Below are positions 47,728 through 64,000 of a stretch of 64,000 nucleotides of DNA, one piece after another; the first letter of the stretch is position 1; each line of letters begins with the position of its first letter. The translations under genes and the position numbers were made by a program. The notes below the pieces were generated by a model. That model searched no databases. It was not told where the DNA came from and worked only from the letters and a program-made list of their open reading frames with translations. The DNA is from an uncultured Nitrospiraceae bacterium. Its GTDB lineage: Bacteria > Nitrospirota > Thermodesulfovibrionia > Thermodesulfovibrionales > UBA6898. Location of the stretch: positions 544,001-608,000 of the forward strand of contig CAWEQH010000001.1 of NCBI GenBank assembly GCA_963811165.1, in the 5' to 3' direction.

Positions 47728-49505
47728 TCAGTAAATAACCCGATCGCTCCTTCTGATAAGTTCAGGTTTCGGTCCTTTCTTGAGCTGAACGATATAGCAT
47801 CCCTTGGAGGCATAGCGTTGACCCGGACCGAAGCTCAGGCGCTCATACGGAGCAATCTCCTGGTCCTCCATCATTCCGATGACATCCAAAAAGTAGTCAC
47901 GGTAATATTTTCCCCTTATATCCATGAGCGCCCGGTCCAGGACCTGGATAACGTCGTGTGTCCGCGCGGTAATCTGCTGAATATCGTCCTGAGCCGGCTT
48001 TCTCGTCAAGGTCTCGATGTGGCCTACAAACGTTGCCTCATCCTGGCGCAACCTGAAAGGGTAGGTTACGTAAGACTTGCGCAATTTGAAAGGGTAGGTT
48101 ATGTACGTGAAGTCACGGGCCTGATCCTTCAATTCCCAAACACTCTTCCCAAGATAGCTCGATGAAACAAAAACCATTCCCGGCCTGTCGTTACCGACAG
48201 CCGCCATATATTCAAGAGCGGTCAGGGCCTGGGGACCGTCCCAAAGGACGAGCACGGCAGGTTTTTCCTCAGCCAATGCCTTCCGCAAGGAGGCTGCAGT
48301 CAGCGCTTCCCCTGCCTTGAGGGTGACCGACACGGGGGGGCGATGTCCCGCTTCCTGCAATGTGTTTTGAAACCCGGCCGCCAGCGCCCGGCCTTCACTT
48401 GAATCGCGAACGATCTGGAGTATCACCCCGCCTTTTGCCGGTTCGTCCTCTACCGTATTGAGATATCTGGCCGCTCCTTCGCCTTCCTGATAATATCCCC
48501 TCGACAGATACCAGGTATACCAGTCATTTTCGGAAATGACCGGTAAATCGGTAAAAGGGAAGAGTTCCGGGATCTTATTTGCCTCGCAGAAATCGTGTAC
48601 CGGCTTCCAGTCACCGCTTGTAATTCCCCCTATCAGCGCAAATACAGGATTGTTACGATGGTATTCTTCCAGCTGGATGCGCCAGGTCTCCCGGGGACCT
48701 TTGAGCACCCAGAGTGCCAGTGACAGATCCCGGTATGCCTGTTCCGGACCGGCGTATTGTCCCTGGGACACCGATGATTCCTGCACAGAGCGGTTCATGC
48801 CTTCCTCAACCTTTTTGAAATATGCATTGCTGTTCCAACTCACTATGTAGTTCTCTAAGGGACGCAGCATCGCCTTGCGAACTTCGGGGCTCACATCCTC
48901 GGAGACGACCGTCGCCAAGTGCAGCGTCGAAGCCGAGACCCCGGGAGAAAATTGAGATGAAAGCGATTTGAGGTAGAAGATGAGCACTGCCATGTCCTTA
49001 TCATCAAGCAGATAACGGGGCATGACCTCGCTCAGGACCCGGCCTGTGGGGTCTATGCCGCCCCTGATTACGTCAGCCAATGTTTCATCCGTATACGCCG
49101 GCCGATATAAAAGCGGCGTGGGAGCTTTTTGAAAATAGCCTGTATAAAATTCTATCTTGTACGGATGGAAGAGCTTCTTCCCGGTTGTAGGGGGCGTGAT
49201 AACACTGCCCTCGATAGAGCCGAGCCCGCTGCGCAGATGGCAACTCACGCAGCTGAAGGCTGTTCCTGCAACAGGGATTTCCCCATTTACCACGGCCTCC
49301 ATCGGTTCACCCGAGGGAAGGATCCGTCACGATACATCCGTTCCCCAAGGCGTACTGCCTTTTCATTGGCCATCCCGGGAACAGGGAGGGGCTTTACGTC
49401 ATCTGCCCATACAGGCCCGGACCAATAAAGCGCGAGCAGGGTAATAAAAAATCGCAGACCGATCAATGCCCCGCGTGCTGTCTTTGCGATATATGTTTTC
49501 ATCAT
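47728..49505 (-). CDS. monoheme cytochrome c fused to a periplasmic-binding-protein-like domain (frameshift near 49310)
   Basis: Signal peptide and GERMYRDG in 49287-49505; CVSCH, MPRY, FGPGQRYASKGCYIV in 47728-49302. Confidence 0.82.
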
Positions 49506-50083
49506 TTGGCCATCCTTTCATATTCGGCCAAAAGGTCGGAAGTCCCGATGAGACCGTAGATTCTGAGCCATCGTTTGTCAGCCGAAGAATACAGCAGGGC
49601 CAGCGGCAAGTGGGACATCTTATTCATGGTGTAGGCCTCCAGGACCTTTGTCACTCTTTCGATATCTCTCTTGGAACCCGTCAGGAATTCCCACCCTGGT
49701 TTTGCACCATACCGTTTAAGGTACTCGGTCAGCCTTTTCGGGGTATCATTTTCAGGATCAATCGAGATGGAAATGAGCAACACATTCTTCGGATCCTGGC
49801 CGACCCTCTTTTGGAAATTTGCAAAGCCGGCTGAAAGCACCGGACAGATCGTGGTGCAGGTGGTAAAGATAAAATCCACCAACACTACTTTCTTCGAGTT
49901 CAGCAGCTCAATGAGCTTCACCTTTTTCCCCTGTTGATTCAGCAGCGTCACGTCCGGAACGACATAGTCTTTGAACGTCCTCGTGTACTTTTCCTGTGTC
50001 CCGGCGCTGACTATCTCTGCTGGAAGTAATAGCGTAAGTGCAGCCAACAAAACCGGGAAATACCATATCTTGAGTTTTGGCAT
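49502..50083 (-). CDS. SCO/SenC copper chaperone
   Basis: FIFTTCTTICP (CxxxC), SISIDPENDTP, WEFLTG, distal His. Confidence 0.93.
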   Translation of the reverse strand: MPKLKIWYFPVLLAALTLLLPAEIVSAGTQEKYTRTFKDYVVPDVTLLNQQGKKVKLIELLNSKKVVLVDFIFTTCTTICPVLSAGFANFQKRVGQDPKNVLLISISIDPENDTPKRLTEYLKRYGAKPGWEFLTGSKRDIERVTKVLEAYTMNKMSHLPLALLYSSADKRWLRIYGLIGTSDLLAEYERMAK

Positions 50084-50290: not shown

Positions 50291-51280
50291 ATGAAAAGGA
50301 GTTTTATGAAATCAAGATTCGCAGTTTTCATGGTCTTGCTCTTTCTCTCACTGTCTTCTCTGAGCTATGGGACTGATTGGTGTCAGGAATATTTGAATAA
50401 AGGAGAATATGACAAAGCGATTGATGCATGCACAGCCATGATTCAATCGCCGGCCCCTCAGACATATCGTAGCTTCTACAATCGCGGGTTTGCCTATTCC
50501 AAGAAGGAACAATACGACAAGGCCATTGCGGATTACACCACGGCAATTGAGCTGGCCCCCCGAAACGGGGGCATTTACGAGGCACGGGCATACGCCTACG
50601 AGGGCACGAAGCAGTACGATAAAGCCATTGGGGATTGGAGTAAAGCCGTTTCAATCGCTCCCTCAGAATATAATTACCTCCATCGCGCAGGTCTCTATCG
50701 CAACAGTGGGCGATATCGTGAGGCCATAGCGGATTACGGCAAGGTCATACAGTTGGACCCCGAAAAGGCCGCAGGCTATTGGTTTCGCTCAGTTGCCTAT
50801 TACGAAGAGGGATCGTTCGGGGACAGCGTCCGGGACAACAGGAAATTGATAGAAATAATGCCGAAGACAATCCATGATGTGAAATTGGATCTTCTCTATG
50901 TGCGTCTTTTAAATTCCGCAGGGAAGCTTTCTCAAGGCGAATACGACAAAGTCCTCGCAGAACTCCGGAGCTATGTGGCCTCTCACGACGTTTCATCCGA
51001 CGACGAAAAGTGGTGGCGGGCCATTTCAAAGTATTACCTGGGGATGGGTGACGTGACGGATATCCGATTGCTTGAGGAAGCGCGCAATGGCAGGACTGAA
51101 GAAACGGTGCAACACAGGCTTTGTGATGCATATTATTCGATCGGCGAAAAAAAACTTATGGAAGGGGACAGAAAAGGGGCAGAAGGGTCCTTTAATAAAA
51201 GCATAGAAACGGGCGTAAATTCATATTCATCAAGATATGCAAAGGCGATGCTGATGCTGATGCATGAGGGAAAGCTGTAG
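50291..51280 (+). CDS. exported tetratricopeptide repeat protein (NlpI-like)
   Basis: Signal peptide; TPRs YNRGFAY...AIADYTTAIELAP; C-terminal LCDAYYSIG. Confidence 0.85.
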   Translation: MKRSFMKSRFAVFMVLLFLSLSSLSYGTDWCQEYLNKGEYDKAIDACTAMIQSPAPQTYRSFYNRGFAYSKKEQYDKAIADYTTAIELAPRNGGIYEARAYAYEGTKQYDKAIGDWSKAVSIAPSEYNYLHRAGLYRNSGRYREAIADYGKVIQLDPEKAAGYWFRSVAYYEEGSFGDSVRDNRKLIEIMPKTIHDVKLDLLYVRLLNSAGKLSQGEYDKVLAELRSYVASHDVSSDDEKWWRAISKYYLGMGDVTDIRLLEEARNGRTEETVQHRLCDAYYSIGEKKLMEGDRKGAEGSFNKSIETGVNSYSSRYAKAMLMLMHEGKL

Positions 51281-51462
51281 TTCCGTTCCCGTGTATCTTT
51301 GCTTTTGTCCTTACGGAAACGTGACCGGTCGGTCCAAACGCAGACGAAAAAGTCTGTCCCCCTTTTCCCGCAGACAGGTTGAACTAAAGCGCCTGCCTCC
51401 ACGGCCGAGGGGGGAACCCCATCCGTCTATGCGCTACGCCAAGAATACGTCGCAGAAGGTGT

Positions 51463-52317
51463 CTACTCGAAGGGGGCGGTGGTTACGTCAAGTTTTATTG
51501 CCTTATCGATAGCCTTTGCCGCCTCTTCATTTCGGCCCAGAGCTCGAAGGCTTACGCCTTTATAATACCAGGCATACACTTCCTCTTCATGGCCCAGGCC
51601 GAGGCTTATCGCCTTATCGTACGCCTTCACCGCTTCTTCATGCCGTCCCAGAGTTCGAAGACTTGAGCCTTTCAAATACCACGCGTGAGGAGTTAACTCC
51701 TTCCTCAGGCCGAGGCTTATCGCCTTATCGAGGGCCTTTGCCGCCTCTTCATTTCGTCCTAATGCTTGGAGGCTTAAGCCGTTTGAGTACCATGCATATG
51801 CCTCGTCTTCCTTCTTAAGGCCGAGGCTTATCGCCTTATCGAAAGCCTTTGCCGCCTCTTCATGTCGTCCTAATGCTTGAAGGTTTAACCCGGTTGAATA
51901 CCACGCATATGCCTCGTCCCTTTTCTGCAAACCGAGGTTTATTGCCTTATCGAAGGCCTTTAACGCCTCTTCACGTCTGCCCAAACTTCCAAGGCTTGCC
52001 CCCTTCTCATACCAGGCATATGCCTCTAAATCTTTCCTGGGGCCGAGGCTTATCGCCTTATCGAATGCCGCTATCGCTTCTTCGTATTTGCCGGCCTGGC
52101 TTAACCCTACTGCCTTGTTATTCCAGTCCGTTGCATTGTCCTCTGCAAAAGCCGGCGCGGCTGCTGAACCGGATACTATGAAACAAGACAGCAAAAATGC
52201 CATTGCAGTAAAATAGTAAGTGCTTTTTCTCGCTGCCGCGTTCCTCGGTTCTTTCACCGGACGGCCAACTTCGTGAGAATTGAGTATAATCATTATCGTC
52301 CTCCCTAAAAGGTCCAT
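51463..52317 (-). CDS. exported TPR protein with 37-aa tandem repeats
   Basis: Repeats AYAWY.KG.SL..LGR.EEA.KA.DKAISLGL; DNA period 111 bp. Confidence 0.88.
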   Translation of the reverse strand: MDLLGRTIMIILNSHEVGRPVKEPRNAAARKSTYYFTAMAFLLSCFIVSGSAAAPAFAEDNATDWNNKAVGLSQAGKYEEAIAAFDKAISLGPRKDLEAYAWYEKGASLGSLGRREEALKAFDKAINLGLQKRDEAYAWYSTGLNLQALGRHEEAAKAFDKAISLGLKKEDEAYAWYSNGLSLQALGRNEEAAKALDKAISLGLRKELTPHAWYLKGSSLRTLGRHEEAVKAYDKAISLGLGHEEEVYAWYYKGVSLRALGRNEEAAKAIDKAIKLDVTTAPFE

Positions 52318-52366: not shown

Positions 52367-53101
52367 TCAACCGCCGTATCTCTTTATCGTTCCCGCAACA
52401 TCGGCGCCGGACTCATGAATCTGGCCGTGGTCCAGCCAGACGACTTTGTTGCAGAGGTCTTCTATGTCGGTCAAATTGTGAGAAACGAGAAGCATCGTTG
52501 TCCCCTTTTCTTTGAACGCACGAATTCTTTCGTTGCACTTTCTTTTGAAATGTGCATCGCCCACGGCGAGGATTTCATCGATGATGAGTATCGCCGGATC
52601 GACTTCGGTCGCGATCGAAAACCCGAGTCTGGCTATCATCCCGGAAGAATATGTTTTAAGGGGGCTGTAAATAAAACCGCTGAGCTCGGAAAAATCCACT
52701 ATCGCCTCGAACTTGTTGTCGATCTCCTTTTTTGAAAGTCCGAGGATCGAGGCATTGAGGTATATGTTTTCTGAGCCGGTCAGCTCCATGTCAAAACCCG
52801 CGCCGAGCTCTATAAGAGGTGCGATTTTGCCGCTTACAAAAACGCTTCCCGCTGTGGGCTTCATCACCCCGGCGACTACCTTTAAGAGCGTGCTTTTCCC
52901 TGCACCGTTAGCACCGATAATGCCGAGGGTCTCCCCTTTGCCGACCTCGAAGCCTACATGCCTCAAGGCCCAGAAATCCTCATAATTGGTCTTCCTGCCT
53001 TTTAGTTTCTGTATGAGAAATTCCTGGAGCGTCTTCGGTTTTTCCCTGGAAAGACGGTAGCGGACCGCAACGTCCGCAATCTTTATTGAGAGATCACTCA
53101 T
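52367..53101 (-). CDS. wzt: polysaccharide ABC exporter ATP-binding subunit
   Basis: GANGAGKST, YSSGMIARLGF, IIDEILAVGD; likely start MSDLSIK at 53101. Confidence 0.92.
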   Translation of the reverse strand: MSDLSIKIADVAVRYRLSREKPKTLQEFLIQKLKGRKTNYEDFWALRHVGFEVGKGETLGIIGANGAGKSTLLKVVAGVMKPTAGSVFVSGKIAPLIELGAGFDMELTGSENIYLNASILGLSKKEIDNKFEAIVDFSELSGFIYSPLKTYSSGMIARLGFSIATEVDPAILIIDEILAVGDAHFKRKCNERIRAFKEKGTTMLLVSHNLTDIEDLCNKVVWLDHGQIHESGADVAGTIKRYGG

Positions 53102-53133
53102 CCCCGTGCCCCCAAATATTTCTCCGCCCGCGA

Positions 53134-53919
53134 TCACAGATGATAAACCACCCTATCTTTATATCTGTCGTAAAAAATCCAGCCTGTGGACAATGCTCCC
53201 AGGGCGAACAATGACGCGAACAACAGTTTTTCATAAAAAAAAGGGACGTCCATGTATAAGACACCCCTGAAGACGCTTATAAAATAGTACATGGGGTTCA
53301 ACTCAAAGATTATCCTGAATCGTTCAGGGACTATCGACTCGGGGAAAAACACAGGGGTCATATACATCATGGCGAGCAGAACGACTTCATAAATGTATTT
53401 CGTGTCATGAAAAAAAACGGTCAGCGTCGAGAGGATGAGTGAAACCCCGTAACAAAATATCCCTACAAGGACGATTACCAATGGAAGCATGATAATACGG
53501 CCGCCGACAGAGGTGCCCGTCAGATAAAAGATTAAAAAAAGAGGGACGAGGGAGAAGACGAAATTGACAACTGCCGACATCACGACAGACAGTGGGAAGA
53601 TGGCCTTCGGAAGATAGATCTTCTTGATGAGATTGCTGTTAGTCAGCAGGCTTACGAGCGCCGATGACGTGCTCTGCGAGAAGAAGTTCCATAGAATGAT
53701 CCCGGAAAGGAGATAGGATGTGTAGTTTTTGGTCGCCACCCGAAAGAGTTCGGAAAAGACCATATTGAGTATCAGCATCATAAACAGAGGGTTAAGCATG
53801 ACCCAGAGAAATCCGAGAACAGACCTCTTATAGCGCACTTTAATGTCCCGCATGACGAGGTTCCTCAGAAGTTCCTTGTATCTGAGGATGTCAAATATTT
53901 CGCTTTTATATGTCACCAT
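53134..53919 (-). CDS. wzm: polysaccharide ABC exporter permease
   Basis: RDIKVRYKRSVLGFLWVMLNP, LIKKIYLP, TPVFFP, LNPM. Confidence 0.92.
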   Translation of the reverse strand: MVTYKSEIFDILRYKELLRNLVMRDIKVRYKRSVLGFLWVMLNPLFMMLILNMVFSELFRVATKNYTSYLLSGIILWNFFSQSTSSALVSLLTNSNLIKKIYLPKAIFPLSVVMSAVVNFVFSLVPLFLIFYLTGTSVGGRIIMLPLVIVLVGIFCYGVSLILSTLTVFFHDTKYIYEVVLLAMMYMTPVFFPESIVPERFRIIFELNPMYYFISVFRGVLYMDVPFFYEKLLFASLFALGALSTGWIFYDRYKDRVVYHL

Positions 53920-54068
53920 GCCTTGCCTCGGTTTGATATTATACAGCATCCGCCCCGTCTTGTTCGCCTTGTCCGTGAATCTGTGAAACCCTCCCCGGGC
54001 TGTGCTAAAATCTTACATGGCCCGAGAGTTCAAAATGGTTTTATTTTTCCTGAAAAGGCCCTGAACCA

Positions 54069-55172
54069 TTGAAGATAGGTATTAATGCAACATTCCTGAG
54101 CGAAAAACCTACCGGATTAGGGGTTTTTACACAAGAGATATCCCGCCATATCTCTGCGCTTAACAGGGACTTCGTCGTATTTTCACCGGTCGCCCTGGAA
54201 GGAGTTTCGGAAGTTTTTATCCATAAAGTCCCGCCTTCGGTCAGGGGTTCTCTGAGGTTTCGCGATAACCTGCTGCGGTTTGTGTATCTAAACGGTCTCT
54301 TCCCCATGCTTTGCCGGAAGAGCAAAGTTGATGTCCTGTTTTGCCCGATGATAGAGTTTCCCTTTGTACCACTTGTCCCGCTTGTTGTGCAAGTCCATGA
54401 CCTGCACCCGATACAATTTGCCGCGCAGTTCAAGCGCGCTGCAGTTCACTTCAGATTATCACTGAAAAGGTTGGAGAAAGTCGCCGGAAGGGTGACCGTC
54501 TCGTCCGAGTTTGTAAAAAAAGTTCTCCTTTCGGCAACAAACTTGGGAGAAGACATGATCGACGTAGTCCCGCTTGCCTATAACCGGGAGAGGTTTTATC
54601 CAAGAGGCCAGGAGGGAAGAGCCGGGTTCCTGGCAAAATATTCCCTCAATGGCCCTTACATCCTTGCGGTGGGAAATCTCTTTCCTTATAAAAATATTGG
54701 CAGCCTTGTTGAGGCATTTCTCAGGATTAAAGGTAAGGTGGCTCATTCATTGGTCGTTGTCGGCAGAAAGGAATTTGCGGCATCGCAATTGGCCGATGAC
54801 GAACGGGTACTGTATACCGATTATGTCCCGGACGAAGACCTCCAGAAATTTCACTCCTATGCTGATCTTCTCATACACCCCTCCCTAAGCGAAGGCTTCG
54901 GACTTACTCCTCTTGAGGCGATGGCCTGCGGTACGCCGGTCATATGCTCTGACCGCGCATCATTACCGGAAGTAGTCGGAGACGCGGGGCTGCTTTTTGA
55001 TCCGGACGACGAGACCGCCTTGGGGGAATTGATACTGAGGGTGCTCGGCAATGAAGGACTGAGAAGAGAACTCTCGGCAAAAGGGCTGAAAAGGGCTCAA
55101 CTATTTTCCTGGGAGAAGACCGCCTCGGGCATCCTTGATTCGTGCAGGAAGGCGCTAAAAGAGAACCGGTGA
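54069..55172 (+). CDS. GT4 glycosyltransferase
   Basis: [35 protein letters not shown]. Confidence 0.92.
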
Positions 55173-56280
55173 AGATACTCCATCTGCTGTACGAAAGCAA
55201 GGGCGATTATTTCGGGATCGGCGGTGTCGGAACGCGCGCATACGAGATTTACGGCCGCCTCAAAGGCAGGCACGAAATTACGCTTTTGTGCAAAAAATAT
55301 CCTGGCGCACGCGACAAAGAGATAGAAGGATTGGCACATATCTTTGCGGGTACCGAAAGCAGGAGTCTCACCAGGACGCTGTTGTCCTACGCATACAGGG
55401 CGGCCCGCTTTGTCTCGGAGAAGGGGAAAGATATGACCTCATAATTGAGGAATTCTCCCCGGCCGTGCCGACCTTTCTCCATGCCGTTACGAAAAGGCCG
55501 GTTGTGCTGCAGGTCCAGGGATATACGGGGTCCCTTTATTTCAGGAAGTACAACCCCCTCTATTCTTCGGTCCTTTTTCTTTTGGAGCACCTGCGGCCGT
55601 TGCTCTATTGCAACTTTATATTTATAAATGATGAGACCGCGGGCAGGCTCTTTCTCGATAACAAAAAGCATAAGACGGTCATCCCAAACGGCGTGGCCCC
55701 CGAACTCTTCGGCCTCCCGTTTCGGCGAGGGGATTACATACTTTACCTGGGCCGTATACATGTACGGCAAGGGGCTCGACCTGCTTTTGGCTGCGTATAC
55801 TGAATTTTGCAGTTCTTTCCGTAACATCAAACTGGTCGTGGCCGGGGACGGCAGGGACATGGACAGGTTAAGGTCAGCGGTGATGGCACTGCCGAGGGCG
55901 TAAGGGGGAACATCGAACTTCCCGGTTGGGTCTCGGGAGTAAAGAAAAGCGAAATTATCGGTGATGCCTCTTTTGTCGTCTTTCCTTCCAGGCATGAGGT
56001 CCAGCCCATATCGGTCCTTGAGGCTATGGCCTGCGGGAAGTCTGTTTTAGTGAGCGATATCCCCGCATGCTCTTTTGTCACGCAAAACGGGGCAGGGGTC
56101 TCCTTCAAGTCAGGGGACCCGGCCTCGCTGGCCCTCTCTATGAAAGATCTCGCCGAAAGCTCCGCACGTGAAGAAATGGGGATCAAGGGAAGGGAATGGG
56201 TCAAAAATTTCACATGGGACAGGATCGCAGCTCAATATGAGAAGTTCCTTGTCGAGACAGTCGAATCTTACTCGGAGTAA
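55169..56280 (+). CDS. GT4 glycosyltransferase (frameshifted)
   Basis: Pieces: KILHLLYES...GGVG, IPNGV, YLGRI..KGLDLLL, FPSRHE...LEAMACGK, FTWDRIA. Confidence 0.85.
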
Positions 56281-57472
56281 ATGATCGCCTTGATCTTCTC
56301 CTTGTCTTTTATCTTGGCAGCCAGTTTTGCCGATTTTCTTGTCTGCGGAATTTCCGATCAGCACCCGGTAGAGCATCCCTTTGTCTTTCCCGGAGCCCTT
56401 GACCACAAAGGCATCGTATCCTTTCCCCTTAAATTGTTTCGTCAGCGCGGCGGCATTGTCTCACTCTTAAACACACCCAGTTGAACGGAATAGTCTTTTT
56501 CCCTGAGGTTTTCGCTTTACCCGAAGGAGTGGGCGCTGTGGGCAAGGCGCGGCGGTCCTTTTTTCGCAGGCAATATGGGGGCCGGTGAGGGCGATGCAGG
56601 GGCTGTTTTCCCGGCAGACGGGCAAGCCGCAGGGGCCGTCTTATTTTCAGCGCCGGTCTGTTGTTTTTGCTGTTCATTTTCCGGAGCAGGCGACGGAGTC
56701 GAAGAATGAGCGGGCGCCGCATTCGGTCTTCGGCTTCATGCGGTAGTCGATGGGTTTATGGGGACGGCCTTTTTAGTCCCCAAATCCCGGTATCAGCCCG
56801 CTGTAAAAGAGGGCGCCTGCACGATAACGACAATTACCATGGCCGCTCCGGCGATGACCGCAGGGAGGCTCGCTTCTTTTTTCTGCGCCTCAGCGCTTCT
56901 TTGGAAATTAGGCATCCGCAGGCTCCGGAATTTTTTTTCCCCGTAAACCATTTCTTTATCAGGCTCTTCGTCAAGCTCCGGTATACCCGACAACTGAAAA
57001 ATCGGAGCCTCATGTCCGGGGCCTGTTTTACGGCAGGACCTCAATCGGGAAGGCAGTCTCTTCGCTTTCAGGGGCACGTTCCTTTTTCCTTGACGTGCAG
57101 TACGATGGGGGGCCTTGAATTGAGGACTTTCGCGGTTTTTTCAAGGAGCTCACCGGCGGTGAAAGGGACGGTAATCACGTCCGGCGACACGAAGGCAGAA
57201 GAGAGTCAATTCCATTTTGCTCGCGGGGATATCAATAAGACGAGGGGGACCTTTTGCAGTGACTCGAACCCGCGGATCGTCCTGCACATATCAAGCCCTG
57301 TTTCATCGGGGTTTATGAATATGAGGGAAGGGCTGACTTTCTGCGCCATTTCCGTGCCGACGTCGCCGCCGGGGACCGCAAAAAACCAGATTCCCTTCCG
57401 ATCGAGGGTAGAAGCGATGAGCTGCTCCGTTTCGCTGTCGGAGTCAATTACAAGGATCGTTTTGCTTGCCAT
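56268..57472 (-). CDS. receiver-like domain + single TM + SPOR domain protein (frameshifted)
   Basis: MASKTILVIDSD...SPSLIFIN (receiver fold); TM LPAVIAGAAMVIVVIV..ALFY; SPOR YSVQLGVFKSE.NAAAL...KGYDAFVV...LYRVLIG. Confidence 0.78.
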
Positions 57473-57511
57473 AGTAAATTCCCTTTCAATGGGTTATCGT
57501 ATCCCGAGACC

Positions 57512-58529
57512 TCAAAGAGGTTCCCAGTACTTCGAAGGCATATGTTGCGCCAGTTCAGCGCACCGTTCATCCTGCAAACAGAGGGTCTTCCACGCAAGAT
57601 ACCCTGCAGGGGCCGTATTCTCTCAGTGCGTCCTGCAAATATTCACGGAGGCCCCGGATCAGGCTGCCGCCGCCTGCAAAGACGATATTGTTTTTATCCT
57701 GACCTGAATTCAGGATCGAACCTCGCGATCATCTCGGTGGTGGTCTCGGTGAGCGCCGGAAGAATGCTTTCGGAGGCCGCTTGATCTCGTGTTTGATATC
57801 GTGCATGACGGGTTTGCCGTCGACCGGTATCCCTCGCGGACCTCTTCGGCCGTGTCCCTTACAAAGCTGTAATTTTTTTTGAACCGACGCACCATGTTCT
57901 TGTTGAACTTCGAGTTGGGATATTTCTCGATCAGATAGCTGAACAGCTGGTCTTCTATGTAATCGCCCGCATTCAGTATGGTCTTCTGGGCTTCCTCTGT
58001 AGGGATCGCCCCGTGCATGATGCAGAAATCGGTCGTACCCGCGCCGATATCGATGACGAGCGAATGTTCAGGAGGTTCATCCCGTAGGCGACCGCAAAGG
58101 GTTCGGTCACACCATCAATGCGTGGACGAATTCCGTCACCGCCTTTCTGATGGCGAGTTGTTCACCTTCAGGGTATCGGCCGAACGCCCACGACCGCGTG
58201 TATCTTTTGTTCCGGTTTGGGGCCTGCGAGTTCGATCAGATGCTTCATGATCTCTTTCACGGCCTCTTCGTTTTTGCCGATCCCTTCCTTTATCACACCA
58301 TGCTCAAGAGCCGGCAGACGTCGAGGGAGAGCCTGTTTTGGAGCGCCTCGGCGCCGAAGAGCACCGGCTTGCCGACGACCTGCATCGAGATAAAGTCCTT
58401 GGGCCAGCCCACGAAACTCTCGATCCATTCCCTCTTGTCGTTGCCGGCCGAGATCGCGGACCTCGATGTCCCGAGGTCGATCCCTACGAACAGGATGTTA
58501 TCTTTTTTCTGCGGATCCGTTTGCCTCAT
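57512..58529 (-). CDS. MamK-like actin-family ATPase (about 340 aa, many frameshifts)
   Basis: Reconstructed motifs FVGIDLGTSRS, SFVGWPKD, LEHGVIKE, HAVVGV, EPFAVAYG, IDIGAGTTDFC, AGDYIED, NIVFAGGGSLIRGL, CVEDPLFAG, MPSKYWEPL. Confidence 0.88.
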
Positions 58530-59556
58530 AGCTCATTTCTCCTTTATTTAGGTAATCCAGTATCCCGGCCTCAAGATAATGGGCGATATTCTCCCTGTGC
58601 CCCGGGGTGTTCAGCATCTGTTCCTCCTCTTTGTTGCTCAGGCATGAGACCTCCGCCAGCACGGCCGGTATGTCCACTCCAAGCAGCACGACGAAAGGCG
58701 CCCTCTTGACCCCGAAGTCGTAGGCGTTTCCGTTGTCTTTCTTGAAGTTCAGAAAAAGCGTTTTTTGTATGGAATATGCAAGGCCCCTGGACTCCTGCGT
58801 CTTCATCCTCTCCCCCAGCTTTTCGATGATCTCCTTGAAATCGCTCAGGCCATACTGGGACCCGGCGTTTTCCTGTTCCGCAAGCCTTTGCGTCTTGGTA
58901 TCGGCAGAGGGACCGAAAAAGTAGGTCTCGATGATATTGATCGGTTTGTGGGGAATATAATTGAGATGAATGGACAGGAAGAGGTCCGCCTTTTTTGATA
59001 CTGCCATATCGACCCTTTTATTGAGGGGCACCGTAACGTCCTGGTCTCGGGTCATCAACACGTTAAACCGGCCGTATTTGTCTAAACGTTCCTTCAGCCT
59101 CCTTGCGATGTCTAAAGTGATGTCCTTCTCAAGAGTGCCCATTACTCCCTTTGTGCCGGAGTCTGCGCCGCCGTGCCCCGCGTCTATCATGATCGTCCTT
59201 ACCCCCAGGCCGAAGGTGCGGCTGACCGACATATCGGGATTGGTGATAAATGCCCGGAAATCGGCCGGATTTGATTTGGGGCCGGGAGTGAGAATTTTTT
59301 GACTTATCTCGCTTGCGGTCAGCTGTTTTTCCGAGAAGAACGAGTTTGAGACGTAGGAGCCGTGGACCAGGATAGCGACCGTTGAGATAAGCAGGGTCAG
59401 GAAAAACTTATTGAGGAGAAAAGGTTTTTGCCGTGATGCAACGCCGTCGCCCTTGCCGATGATCCGCAAATTTTCTTCATAGACGCCCCGCAGCATCTCC
59501 TGCCGGACCTTAAGATCGTTTTTCTTCCGCGAAAAAATAGAGATCATGACGTTCAC
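58498..59556 (-). CDS. membrane-anchored N-acetylmuramoyl-L-alanine amidase (Amidase_3)
   Basis: IMIDAGHGGAD, EKDITL, MTRDQD, FLSIHLN, PAVLAEV; N-proximal TM FFLTLLISTVAILV. Confidence 0.93.
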   Translation of the reverse strand: MNVMISIFSRKKNDLKVRQEMLRGVYEENLRIIGKGDGVASRQKPFLLNKFFLTLLISTVAILVHGSYVSNSFFSEKQLTASEISQKILTPGPKSNPADFRAFITNPDMSVSRTFGLGVRTIMIDAGHGGADSGTKGVMGTLEKDITLDIARRLKERLDKYGRFNVLMTRDQDVTVPLNKRVDMAVSKKADLFLSIHLNYIPHKPINIIETYFFGPSADTKTQRLAEQENAGSQYGLSDFKEIIEKLGERMKTQESRGLAYSIQKTLFLNFKKDNGNAYDFGVKRAPFVVLLGVDIPAVLAEVSCLSNKEEEQMLNTPGHRENIAHYLEAGILDYLNKGEMSYEANGSAEKR

Positions 59557-59559
59557 AAC

Positions 59560-59588
59560 ACTTTACCAATTTGCGGGAAAAAATTCAA
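59560..59588 (-). promoter_or_regulatory. putative sigma70 promoter of the amidase-actin-SPOR unit
   Basis: Minus strand TTGAAT, 17 nt, TG-n-TAAAGT; would favour ATG 59547 as the amidase start. Confidence 0.5.
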
Positions 59589-59849
59589 TGGTGAAGCTCT
59601 CTTATAGCAGGCATGTCACTTGTCCTGTGCCCTCTGCAGCAAAAAATGTATCTTGTTCCAGGCCATGTTGTTAGCGCCTGTGCTTGCCCGCTATGTATAT
59701 GTAATAGTAATGGCGCCGAGGGGAACCCTCTCCCAGGTTTTTCTCGCTCTTGCCTATCCCGAAGCCGAAATTCAAGAAATTCAGTCTCTGTCGTCCATTA
59801 ATTCATATTCTTCAACTATAGAGTATTCATCCTGAATCCGGAAAACAAT

Positions 59850-60899
59850 TTAAATTATGACCTGCATCTTCTTCAGGCCAAAGGCAGTTAGGTTCGTTAA
59901 GAGGAAGGATAGCATATAAATGATAATCACTAGAAAAGAGAATAACAAATAATCTTCTAAGAGATTTAATTGAAGGTATCTAAAAAGAGGTAAAGTCTGA
60001 GTTAATAAAATATGATGAATTAGAAATGCTCCATAAGAATATACACTGAAAAAATTAACAATCTTCTTAAGAAATAAAATATCAAAAAAAGAAGAGACAC
60101 ATGATAAACATATGAAAATGCAAATACCTTCTATAGCCGTCCTATAAAGGATAGGCATATTCGTTTCAACAGCCAAGAAAAAGAATATTCCTGCTATTCC
60201 TATTATGAAAACTTTTGACAATCCATGAGAGGGGTTATAGAAATAAACAAAACTCATGCCAAAGGCAAATTCGACTAACCGAGACAGCGGAAATCTGAGA
60301 ATTTCCATATTCAGACAATAAAATCTTTCCGTCAAGATCATTATGAATACACAAAACAGAAAGGTGATCAATTGATTTGTCAAAAATAGACGCCGCAAAA
60401 AAGGAAAAATCATATACATGATGATGATAAAGCCTAAAAACCATTCTCCCAGCAAATAAAAATTATTTACTCCATACCGCAAAAAACCATCTAGCCCCGC
60501 GATTGTAAGCAAGAAAGTTGCCAAATGTGCTTTTACAGGAACCGCTTGATATTTCAAGAATAATATTGAAAAAGTTATCACATAAGTAACCCAGAAAAGA
60601 GGATAAATGGAAAAAAACCTTTTTTTAAAAAAAGCCTTTGCCTCAAAGGTGTCTTTTGTGCTTACCATTAGTGAAGCTCCCGATAGAATAATGAAGAGTG
60701 ACACTCCTATAAGTCCCCAAAAAGAGTGATCCAAGCTAAACAGCGATTGAGGCCAGAAGACGATATTGTTCGTAATTCCCATTTCCAGGGCATGATAATT
60801 GTAATGAAAAATTATTATCAGTAATATTGAAATCGCTCTTAAAAAGTCAAGGTAGAAAAGTCTTTTCCCCTTCATCGTATGTAGTTTGACATTATCCAC
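59850..60899 (-). CDS. acyltransferase family 3 (O-acetyltransferase)
   Basis: YLDFLRAISI...H, GVSLFIILSG, KKRFFSIYP, SYGAFLIH; polytopic membrane protein; very AT-rich. Confidence 0.9.
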   Translation of the reverse strand: MDNVKLHTMKGKRLFYLDFLRAISILLIIIFHYNYHALEMGITNNIVFWPQSLFSLDHSFWGLIGVSLFIILSGASLMVSTKDTFEAKAFFKKRFFSIYPLFWVTYVITFSILFLKYQAVPVKAHLATFLLTIAGLDGFLRYGVNNFYLLGEWFLGFIIIMYMIFPFLRRLFLTNQLITFLFCVFIMILTERFYCLNMEILRFPLSRLVEFAFGMSFVYFYNPSHGLSKVFIIGIAGIFFFLAVETNMPILYRTAIEGICIFICLSCVSSFFDILFLKKIVNFFSVYSYGAFLIHHILLTQTLPLFRYLQLNLLEDYLLFSFLVIIIYMLSFLLTNLTAFGLKKMQVII

Positions 60900-61911
60900 G
60901 AAGAAACTTTTTGATCTTCATTAAGAAGAAGTCCTTTTCCCAAACAGAGGTCATAATACTGTAAAGGTATTTATTATCGACTTTCACGGTTTTCATAATT
61001 TGTTTTCTCTTGCTCATCATGCTTGGAAAAAAAATGACAACGTCTCTTTTTGCCTTAAGATAAACCCTCAGTTTCCTATGCTTTACTGCAAAATAGATAA
61101 ACTCAGATATGATGCCAAGGATAAATTCCGGGAAACACCTCAAGAAAAGAACAAATGAGATATTCTTGATTCTCACAAATTCGCTGTTCCTGAGGGTATA
61201 ATAAACAGCCATATCGCTCATATGACCTATCGATGAGCGAACCTTATGATAGACTACCGCGGTAGGTACGTAGAGGACCTGCCAACCTGCAAGCTGAGCC
61301 CTGAAGTTAAGATCGGTATCTTCGTGGATCAGGAAAAAATCTTTGTCAAGAAAACCGATCTCATCGAGCATTTTCCGCCTGTAAAGTGCAGCACCTGCAC
61401 AAGCACCGAAGACATATTCCTGGCTGTTATAGTTGAGGCTGGCTTCCCCTTCTCCTCGTTTAAAGCCCTTCAGCGATGTTGAGTATCCGTCACCCGCACT
61501 ATCTATGTTATCTGTTCCAAAAACAATCATTTTAGAAGCGCAGATGCCCGTATCGGGACGCGCTTCCATCACTCTAACAAGATTATCGATCCATTCCCTG
61601 CCGGGTTCGGTGTCATTATTAAGGAGGGCTATATATTCGGCTTCCGTATACGCTAACCCCGCCAGATTACCACCAGCAAAGCCTGAGTTACCGTTTAAGG
61701 GGATTAATTTTACAGGATTTAAAGTGCTCATTTCTAAAAACTTTCGGATTTCATTTATTGAATTATCTGACGAGCCATTTTCAACAATGATAACCTCAAA
61801 GTCCTTAAAGCTCTGCTCCTCAATAGCTCTCAGACAATCTATCGTCAGGTCGCTCCCATTGTAATTGACAATAATTATGCTTACTTTGGGCATCTGCCTT
61901 GGTTGATGCAT
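60892..61911 (-). CDS. GT2 glycosyltransferase
   Basis: VSIIIVNYN, ENGSSD, LLNND, HEDTDL. Confidence 0.92.
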   Translation of the reverse strand: MHQPRQMPKVSIIIVNYNGSDLTIDCLRAIEEQSFKDFEVIIVENGSSDNSINEIRKFLEMSTLNPVKLIPLNGNSGFAGGNLAGLAYTEAEYIALLNNDTEPGREWIDNLVRVMEARPDTGICASKMIVFGTDNIDSAGDGYSTSLKGFKRGEGEASLNYNSQEYVFGACAGAALYRRKMLDEIGFLDKDFFLIHEDTDLNFRAQLAGWQVLYVPTAVVYHKVRSSIGHMSDMAVYYTLRNSEFVRIKNISFVLFLRCFPEFILGIISEFIYFAVKHRKLRVYLKAKRDVVIFFPSMMSKRKQIMKTVKVDNKYLYSIMTSVWEKDFFLMKIKKFLRG

Positions 61912-61961
61912 GTCTGAATAATGAAGATAGGGAGCCCGATCTCATTCATACGGGTTTGCAC

Positions 61962-64000
61962 TTAATACGAGGAAATTAAATATGAAACGTCATCGCTTTC
62001 GCTCTTAATGAATACCTTAATGATATTAAAGCCAGTATCTTTAGAAATTACTTCCTTTAAAACTGATCCCCCAACTTTAAACTCCCATCCCGAATTCAGA
62101 CAATCAGCCCTATCAAAATGCTTTTCCACATCCGGACGCGGCATCCCAAGCGTTGCCTTTCCCACAAGTTCAGCATTGGCATAAATGAAGATCTCCTTTA
62201 CGGGGTCATTGATTCCTTTGCCTATAGCCCACCCGAAAATGGAGAGACCGCCATCCTGTGTCATCCAAACAGAATCAATGTTTCCCATAGGGTAATGGGT
62301 AGGCATCAAATTGTTCATCTGCGGAATATTCTTTTTTGTAACCACATAAATATCCTGAAATCCGCGTAATTCTTTCTCCAGAAAATAAATATTGGCAATG
62401 CCTATTTTCTTGCCCAATCCCTCCACCCAATCTCGTTTTACAAAGGTAGATCCATATTCCTTTGAAGACAATGACCTGCTTTCGCTCCAATTAAAAAAGG
62501 TGAACCCTGACGGATCGATCTGAAGTCCTTCAGGGCACAACGATTCTCCATGCGTTGAAAAGATAAGGATTCCGTCATCGTCCAAAACGTTATAGAGAGT
62601 CGATAGCCACTCTTCAAAACGGTTTGCGGGAAGATGAGAAAATAGAGATCCTACATAAATTATCTCAAAGTTTCCGGGAAATACCAGGCGTGAAGGTTCT
62701 GTTTCAGAGTAAAACCCATTTACCATAAAATATTTCTTTTGAAAATCTACCGCGTCCTTGTAGATATCGCTTACCCATACTTTGGTGGACTCGATCTCTT
62801 GAATCAAGAACCTCGTAACCCTTCCGTAGCCGCATGCAAAGTCCAAAAAGGTTCTTACTTCTCGAAACGACTTTCCGCTAAACCGTATAATATTTTCAAT
62901 GCTCTTAAAACATTCTCTGCCTATTATGAAATAGAGATATTTTGCCGTATCCTTCTGCTCGGTGCTATTTCTCGAAGTGATATACATCTCATCTTCCGGA
63001 CTTATTACATCAACAAAAGTATTGGGGTTCTTCGCTGCCGTTTCGATGTAGGCATTCGCTAATTTTTCCTCTCTGTCAGTGAACAAATGTTGATTGATGA
63101 CATGCCTGTCATTAGATCCTTTTGTCTTCTCCATACACTGTCTAATAAATCCTTTTATCTTTTCCATGCATTGTTTGTTAAAAGTCTCTTCCCAGCTCTG
63201 GCTCCAATGAACGTTGGCTCCGCTTACACGGCTGTCATAATTTTCAATATTCTTTATTGCCCTCACGAGTCCATTTTCTATTCCTTCTGTTGTGGGTTCA
63301 GCCGGGATAATATTTGTCGAAGATTTCCCTAAGACGTTCTGCTGTTTTATTAGCAAAGGTATTTGTTATAACAAGCATCCCCGCTGCAGCCATTTCTAAA
63401 GGTACAATGCTTGGGTGTGGTGAAAGCATCAAACTAAGGCCAATATCAAACCCCGGCAGCACCTCTTTATATTCGTTCAGACTCAGCTTCGGCAACAGTT
63501 TCATAGATACATTGTCATGAAGGATTATCTTCTTGTTCTCTCCCTCTACACTGCCGATTCCATAGAACTCCCAGTTATCAACATCAAAATAACCACTTCC
63601 GATTACATTGGACAATGCGATCATTCCAAGCTCAAACATGTTTCGTGATGCATGTTCCTCAGGGCGTGCATAAAACAATAATTTCTTTTTTGCCCTACTC
63701 GCCATCTTGGTCTTGTCTAATTGAAATTTCAGAATCGCGTTCTCAATAGCAACAGACGATTCCTCACCGATTTGATGCCCGTCTCTAAATACTCCTAATC
63801 GATTCTGACTGAAATATTCTCTCAGTATTTCCGTAGAAAACACCGCGTAATGAGGAAGATTATAGCTTTCCATCGCCAAAGCCGCAAATGATCCCATCGG
63901 GTAAAATATAGGTTCGAATTCCTGGCTGAGATATAGAAAGTTATGAGAATTGAGGTATTTTATAGCGTAATTTGCGATATGAGCCGTCCACCAGCTGGTC
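61962..64000 (-). CDS. WsaF-like glycosyltransferase fused to a class I methyltransferase (5' end off window; frameshift near 63322)
   Basis: TSWWTAH, QEFEPIFYP, FYARP...RNMFELG, SPHPSIVPLEMAAAG; then LDFACGYGR, GSLFSHL; removing one T joins the two ORFs. Confidence 0.78.

Follow-up and report, generated by a model that had tools for sequence, protein, structure and literature searches.

A MamK-family actin gene paired with a peptidoglycan amidase gene in Thermodesulfovibrionales

In the MreB-RodZ elongasome, a bacterial actin is joined to cell wall enzymes via a bitopic membrane protein. Bactofilin and the hydrolase LmdC are encoded by genes that overlap by 17 bp; the N-terminal cytoplasmic tail of the hydrolase binds the polymer, and the pair controls local wall curvature (PMC10945521). 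In the ParM-ParR system, the bacterial actin has a hydrophobic pocket at its barbed end that receives a short tail of the partner protein (PMC5016525). The gene for MamK serves as a signature of magnetotactic bacteria and as a marker in searches for them (PMC10653835, PMC7449369). Uzun et al., whose text notes close MamK homologs in non-magnetotactic bacteria, kept 227 of 2798 MamK-like matches after a check for other mam genes (PMC7449369). Non-magnetosome relatives of MamK are thus already known in general, and they include BeeR (8R2N; NF053558), in which the cross-strand loop formed by MamK residues 80-85 is described as missing (PMC11929497).

This analysis concerns a MamK-like actin gene on a 64,000-nucleotide stretch of DNA from an uncultured Nitrospiraceae bacterium (hereafter the window). 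The first-pass annotation of this DNA was right about the MamK family, and it overlooked an amidase gene that lies upstream of the actin gene and overlaps it. The features discussed below are as follows.

57512..58529, minus strand: gene for a MamK-family actin (342 aa where the ortholog is intact; the window copy has 11 one-base deletions).
58498..59556, minus strand: intact gene for a membrane-anchored Amidase_3 N-acetylmuramoyl-L-alanine amidase (Pfam Amidase_3, E 1e-41).
59452..59517, minus strand: helix at the N terminus of the amidase (residues 11-32, ILRGVYEENL) that is conserved among orthologs and, in view of this conservation and a complex model, predicted to be cytoplasmic and to dock on the actin.
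59350..59421, minus strand: predicted single transmembrane helix of the amidase, inferred from its highest Kyte-Doolittle 19-residue window (mean 2.15).
56268..57472, minus strand: frameshifted REC-SPOR gene encoding a receiver-like domain, a linker, a predicted transmembrane helix and a SPOR domain (Pfam Response_reg and SPOR on the intact allele of contig C3).

The actin gene runs from an ATG at 58529 to a stop at 57512-57514, and its coding pieces on the minus strand are spread across three frames. Compared with two intact alleles, one from the same bin (contig C3) and one from a relative (locus L016), the window copy has 11 single-base deletions (near 58310, 58182, 58157, 58110, 58065, 57834, 57778, 57706, 57692, 57568 and 57556) and no insertions. 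Two independent contigs from two separate runs, which represent other strains (about 95% alike) and not the source sample, span 57510-59590 in 2092 letters where the window has 2081, with 11 gaps, a difference that equals the bases absent from the window actin gene. There are no stops within 309 comparable codons, and dN/dS for the window allele is 0.06-0.10 (0.099 against C3), compared to 0.038 between the intact alleles. By this measure the actin clade is under purifying selection, and the higher value of the window allele fits sequence errors but also relaxed selection.

For the source bin (G000), 40 kb of the window region align with contig C2 at 96.5% and 17 kb with contig C3 at 87-93%; because of these long matches, both contigs are most likely strain haplotypes of the window region, and the idea of three actin copies in one genome was rejected. 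Deletions in the window reach 14-28 per kb where C2 diverges (kb 56-59), as opposed to 0-2 per kb where the two are identical (kb 29-39 and 60-66), and number 4-5 per kb in kb 52-53. We infer that the frameshifts of the window actin are very probably consensus errors that arose from mixed strains. The converse, that the gene is a true pseudogene in its particular strain, would account for 11 frameshifts next to broken neighbors, for the slightly raised dN/dS and for a C2 copy that is likewise frameshifted, but it is improbable given that every change is a one-base deletion without a stop, that the deletions pile up where C2 diverges, that C3 carries an intact allele within the same bin and that the independent contigs are intact in length. 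The gene for a GT4 glycosyltransferase (55142-56280) and the REC-SPOR gene (56268-57472) are also frameshifted, probably through the same consensus errors. Across 26.8-64 kb, C2 and the window are identical over many kb and only about 80% alike at 57-59 kb, the block that holds the amidase, actin and REC-SPOR genes, which suggests either that strains have exchanged alleles of the module as a whole or that the region is mis-assembled.

As the actin gene is frameshifted in the window, family-level analyses were run on P0001, the intact ortholog from L016, which has 88% nucleotide identity to the window gene. All the MamK motifs that had been read from the DNA were recovered on the minus strand at the positions given (GIDLGTS, SFVGWPKD, EPFAVAYG, DIGAGTTDFC, YSFV, GKPV, FDPEF, NIVFAGGGSLIRGL, CVEDPLFAG and PSKYW). 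The assignment to MamK rather than MreB was likewise upheld by sequence scores, NCBIfam models and structure comparison. P0001 scores 312 bits against AMB-1 MamK (5JYG), 155 against BeeR and 59 against MreB. It passes the NCBIfam MamK model NF040964 (418.7 against a cut-off of 400), as does the intact C3 allele from the same bin (409.6), and it falls below the cut-offs of the MreB models TIGR00904 (74.5 vs 365.75) and NF010539 (88.5 vs 293) and of the BeeR model NF053558 (232.4 vs 530). Pieces of the window gene itself match the NCBIfam MamK model (E 7e-13 and 8e-14) and no MreB model, and a Pfam search of its ORF fragments gave no match. The AlphaFold model of P0001 (pLDDT 84.5) has MamK structures as its top Foldseek matches, with a TM score of 0.89 to the filament form 5LJV, and across 39 orthologs the ATP-site residues D18, G20, D162, G164, G289 and G290 are invariant and the catalytic Glu, E144, is at least 90% conserved. 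Several orthologs already bear the NCBI label 'MamK family actin-like protein', and the nearest named relatives come from Thermodesulfovibrionales/Nitrospirae. The host has a separate cluster at C1:84669-89818 that, from its sequence, we take to be mreB-mreC-mreD-mrdA-rodA-like, and its MreB is only 25% identical to the actin. On sequence grounds, the predicted product of 57512-58529 is therefore confirmed as a MamK-family actin and not an MreB.

This actin shares with MamK (5JYG, 5LJV, 5LJW; NF040964) its best sequence and structure match, a score above the model cut-off, the ATP-site residues and its length; it differs from MamK in lying outside a magnetosome cluster, in a host without detectable mam genes, in forming a separate clade and in having a wall amidase as its fixed partner. 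Like BeeR, it is a MamK-related actin found in non-magnetotactic bacteria, but it misses the BeeR cut-off (232 vs 530), belongs to a separate clade, lacks a long N-terminal extension and has a cross-strand loop as long as that of MamK, whereas BeeR is without this loop (PMC11929497).

The first-pass annotation had also placed the actin outside any magnetosome gene cluster and had offered three origins for it: a non-magnetosome MamK clade, a second copy in a magnetotactic host, or a relic of lost magnetotaxis. Its position was borne out, since its neighbors are the amidase gene, the REC-SPOR gene and glycosyltransferase genes. The suggested search of the remaining genome for core mam genes found none in G000: tblastn with the proteins of five Nitrospirota magnetosome clusters, one of which was confirmed to hold MamM and MamB-, MamP-, MamA-, MamE- and MamQ-like genes, failed to find mamA, B, E, I, M, P or Q in this 95% complete genome. 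The matches were scattered generic CDF, HtrA, LemA-like and TPR proteins (at most 34% over long matches, with short protease stretches of up to 44%). The MamM model gave 0 matches in G000 at 1e-60. A 446-aa protein encoded behind mamK in L095, which by its position is presumably Mad28, also finds no match in G000.

A search with P0001 across 201 genomes of the order revealed two types of MamK-level match. Class A actins (64-96% identical to P0001) occur in 43 genomes, among which mamM/mamB matches number 0/43, and class B actins (43-48% identical) occur in 21 genomes, all of them among the 25 with MamM/MamB matches. The amidase-actin module is found in none of these 25 genomes, where chance would predict 5.3, and this exclusion is just a hint because 22 of the 25 belong to one family. 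All class B copies lie inside mam clusters except two in G299. In this magnetotactic-type genome, these two mamK copies (L103 and L104) sit outside the mam cluster among response-regulator and chemotaxis-like genes.

In an LG+G4 tree of 43 rows, class A actins form one clade (98/96) whose sister is the Acidobacteriota-labelled P0123 (100/99); Nitrospirota magnetosome MamK (100/100) and the clade with the AMB-1 MamK-like protein P0175 (95/95) lie apart from it. Class A is also its own clade in two larger trees of 95 and 68 rows, the latter a quick tree; rows were dropped from the set (95 of 130, 68 and 43 taken) for speed, redundancy or long branches. The existence of a non-magnetosome MamK clade is thereby supported. 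In AU tests on the 43 rows, neither an arrangement with class A as sister to Nitrospirota magnetosome MamK (p 0.49) nor one that joins both magnetosome-type clades (p 0.24) is rejected, and the former has an SH-aLRT of 86 in the 68-row tree.

These data bear on the proposal that the actin gene is left over from a magnetosome cluster that was lost, or that the host is magnetotactic, with this gene as its second mamK and a cluster that the assembly lacks. Such an origin could draw on the magnetotactic relatives in the same family (G008 and G023, with mamK inside mam clusters), on the tolerated sister position to Nitrospirota magnetosome MamK and on the shortfall of modules in mamM/mamB genomes, with the caveat given above for a set dominated by one family. 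It is, however, largely refuted and highly improbable. The actin is only 42-45% identical to the mamK products of those family relatives but shares 62-69% identity with amidase-linked copies from a different phylum; it sits in a clade of its own apart from both magnetosome MamK clades, so on phylogenetic evidence its gene neither was recently copied from a local magnetosome mamK nor is left over from one; mam and mad28 orthologs were not found in G000; and no class A carrier has mamM. Neither earlier suggestion therefore fared well: a second copy finds no mam genes in the host to accompany it, and a relic is at odds with purifying selection, a separate clade and a partner gene of its own.

ORF clustering over 49 loci recovered the actin in 49, an Amidase_3 in 48 and a REC-SPOR protein in 34, and no other gene recurred in more than 9 of them, so that neither a conserved cargo gene nor a division gene was detected. 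In the genome scan, the amidase gene is immediately upstream of the actin gene in 37 of 37 loci, some of which carry Desulfobulbaceae and Syntrophobacteraceae labels, and the pair is also found in the Desulfobacterota-type loci L050-L052 and L142. The amidase stop falls within or next to the first codons of the actin gene, 11-39 nt ahead of the GIDLGT codon, in all 40 loci where the distance could be measured (of 41), and in the window it overlaps the actin start by 32 nt. In a sister clade from metagenomes (80 loci, about 50% identity to P0001), an amidase gene is present in all 72 loci with at least 400 nt upstream, the other 8 being left out of the count for upstream DNA that was too short. 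In one binned genome, amidase-actin loci occur on two separate contigs (L027 and L038), which may reflect duplication or strain mixture.

When a profile of this amidase subtype was used to search the 201 genomes at E < 1e-120, it recovered the same 43 genomes as the class A actin plus G448, where the subtype is a fragment cut at a contig end. Weaker matches in nearly all genomes represent a separate housekeeping amidase (192 of 201 have some amidase match), which genomes with the module typically carry as well. Class A actin is missing from 158 of the 201 genomes, and because it is absent from most of the order, the module is dispensable.

The amidase, whose likely start is the ATG at 59547, has a conserved helix at its N terminus, followed by a single hydrophobic segment, a variable linker and the residues of the catalytic domain. 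All 39 orthologs share H125, E140, H194 and E299, which we take to be the zinc-binding residues and the catalytic Glu. Within the tail, N26 is invariant and L19, Y23 and L27 are at least 90% conserved. A similar N-terminal helix was seen by eye in the 30 sister-clade amidases listed, and a search with residues 1-60 alone returned 10 close relatives, all Amidase_3, distant ones being beyond its reach.

A complex of the actin with amidase residues 3-46 was predicted alongside three controls. The model has an ipSAE of 0.85 (best control, 0.00), at least 95% of its contacts agree between runs and the partner pLDDT is at least 69; 116 of 157 solved pairs and 2 of 215 mismatched ones attain the ipSAE mark, a rough guide here, where the alignments were our own. 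Modelled contacts place the most conserved tail residues (L19, V22, Y23 and N26) on actin positions 140-142, 150 and 330-338, and conservation is 0.71 for interface residues vs 0.46 for the remainder of the tail. We take this groove to be the barbed-end cleft of eukaryotic actin (Y143, L346, L349) that is used by ParR and actin regulators, and the site to be the equivalent of the ParR pocket on ParM, a likeness that makes the complex model plausible. The amidase helix is thus predicted to dock on the actin groove, and part of the score may stem from actin-helix complexes that the predictor had already learned, ParM-ParR for example. Magnetosomal Nitrospirota MamK, which is without an amidase partner, keeps the same cleft residues, so cleft conservation does not single out the amidase. 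A helix seated in the barbed-end cleft might also act as a filament cap or hold single monomers instead of travelling along filaments. Compared with ParM-ParR, the partner here is a membrane enzyme instead of a DNA-binding adaptor, and the actin gene is chromosomal, with no match at 1e-15 among the PLSDB plasmids.

The closest functional parallel is bactofilin-LmdC, with which the pair shares an overlapping two-gene unit that places a bitopic wall hydrolase ahead of a cytoskeletal gene, and a short cytoplasmic N-terminal tail as binding determinant, shown for LmdC (PMC10945521) and predicted for the amidase. The two systems differ in their parts, neither of which is homologous: the nucleotide-free bactofilin and an M23 endopeptidase in one, an ATP-binding actin and a zinc Amidase_3 in the other. 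By analogy, the pair would resemble bactofilin-LmdC in how it works while its parts, an actin and an Amidase_3, mark it as no member of that system. It differs too from MreB-RodZ, as the host has its own mreB cluster (25% identity) and the partner of this actin is a hydrolase. We propose, with a probability of roughly 60%, that the amidase-actin pair is an accessory, actin-guided module for wall remodelling. In this proposal, the actin would polymerize with ATP into a MamK-like double filament that the conserved cytoplasmic helix of the amidase is predicted to bind; the filament, likely ATP-driven, would hold or move the membrane-anchored wall-cutting enzyme at chosen sites, and local cleavage would shape the cell or make local openings in the wall. 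The module would be accessory both to MreB and to the housekeeping amidase, and where a REC-SPOR protein is present it would bind the glycan strands that the amidase has stripped.

Two other functions for the pair can be weighed against wall remodelling. The amidase might tether a MamK-like filament to membrane and wall, or cap its end, while the filament positions cytoplasmic cargo such as granules, vesicles or DNA, as MamK does with magnetosomes. The retained MamK fold, a cross-strand loop of MamK length (no gap against MamK in the alignment) and the resemblance of the predicted site to the filament-end site of ParR are compatible with this idea; it is nevertheless unlikely, because a pure anchor would not need the four catalytic residues that are invariant in all 39 orthologs, and because just the amidase and REC-SPOR genes recur in more than 9 of the 49 loci, leaving no conserved cargo gene nearby. 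Still less probable is a division or cell-separation unit, in which the actin would stand in for FtsEX/EnvC-type systems as the activator of the amidase at septa, for instance where cells form chains or filaments. A septal location is typical of Amidase_3 enzymes and SPOR proteins, and a REC-SPOR gene follows the actin gene in 21 of 33 loci, but most genomes have a separate housekeeping amidase with or without the module, and no division gene recurs beside the pair at the 49 loci. Within the wall-remodelling reading, a bolder and tentative version holds that the pair is an undescribed, widespread wall-cutting machine: the amidase would track a dynamic MamK-type filament end via its ParR-like helix, polymerization would move or pattern cleavage, and this may be an ancestral housekeeping function that magnetosome MamK co-opted, which would explain why both are never found in one genome here.

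The REC-SPOR protein is a less constant companion. Its receiver-like domain mostly has Asn at the inferred phospho-Asp position, and its gene is 3' of the actin gene in the 21 of 33 loci (counted where the flank was sufficient) cited above. The family occurs in 153 of the 201 genomes, most of which are without the amidase-actin module, and beside the 80 sister-clade loci there is only one REC or SPOR match. These counts weaken its candidacy as a dedicated third subunit, and by genomic distribution the gene is an optional part of the module. The module lies amid polysaccharide genes (52367-55172 and 59850-64000) that encode an ABC transporter pair, a GT4 enzyme, an acyltransferase, a GT2 enzyme and a methyltransferase; these flanks are not conserved past close relatives. 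GC content falls to 0.38-0.41 beyond 60 kb, and a scan of 56-60 kb for promoters and terminators gave counts in line with chance (2 and 8 found, against 2.8 and 5.5 expected). No RNA dataset was listed among the sequencing runs that carry the sequence, which has no bearing on its expression. Farther away, 47728-50083 and 50291-52317 hold a gene for a c-type cytochrome (CxxCH)/periplasmic-binding protein with a SCO1/SenC gene, and two TPR proteins.

A description of an amidase-MamK pairing was not found in a search of mainly open-access literature. What the window adds to the known existence of non-magnetosome MamK relatives is the picture for Thermodesulfovibrionales: an exact joint occurrence of actin and amidase across an order with magnetotactic members, and two MamK types that never overlap. 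Of the 64 order genomes with a MamK-level match, 43 have the amidase-linked, non-magnetosome form without mamM, and this form passes the NCBI MamK cut-off, so a 'MamK family' annotation is poor evidence of magnetotaxis. If the predicted binding is true, a bacterial actin is coupled directly to a peptidoglycan amidase through a short interface of about 20 residues. The module is also a candidate for the ancestral job of MamK, and so bears on the origin of the magnetosome cytoskeleton.

The searches also uncovered non-magnetosome MamK-like clades without an amidase (L137, L140, L141 and L143-L149). L137, L140 and L141 (in G741, G799 and G849) have tandem mamK-like pairs with no mam neighbors; L137 and L140 fall in the clade of proteobacterial-type MamK, and G741 and G799 are without a MamB-level match. 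Relics of magnetosome genes, or copies put to another use, are better sought among these tandem genes. L143-L149 and L151 form another non-magnetosome MamK-like group that lacks the amidase, with 44-47% identity to P0001 and scores mostly above the MamK cut-off; in L143 the MamK-like gene comes after genes for charged proteins of 663 and 117 aa. MamK-like domains also occur at the C terminus of proteins of 520-1230 aa (P0126, P0127, P0131-P0134, P0136, P0137, P0139, P0140, P0142, P0143, P0147, P0149, P0167 and P0170), several of which score above the MamK cut-off and whose N-terminal parts have no Pfam match. P0159 (CAX83788.1), from an uncultured bacterium and annotated as MamK, is a 768-aa FtsZ-MamK fusion that may be real or a read-through error. 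Finally, A278D is the non-polymerizing MamK mutant of PDB 5LJW, and one class A actin (L051:7983-9020) has Asp at the column of AMB-1 MamK A278, a column that is variable in the family.
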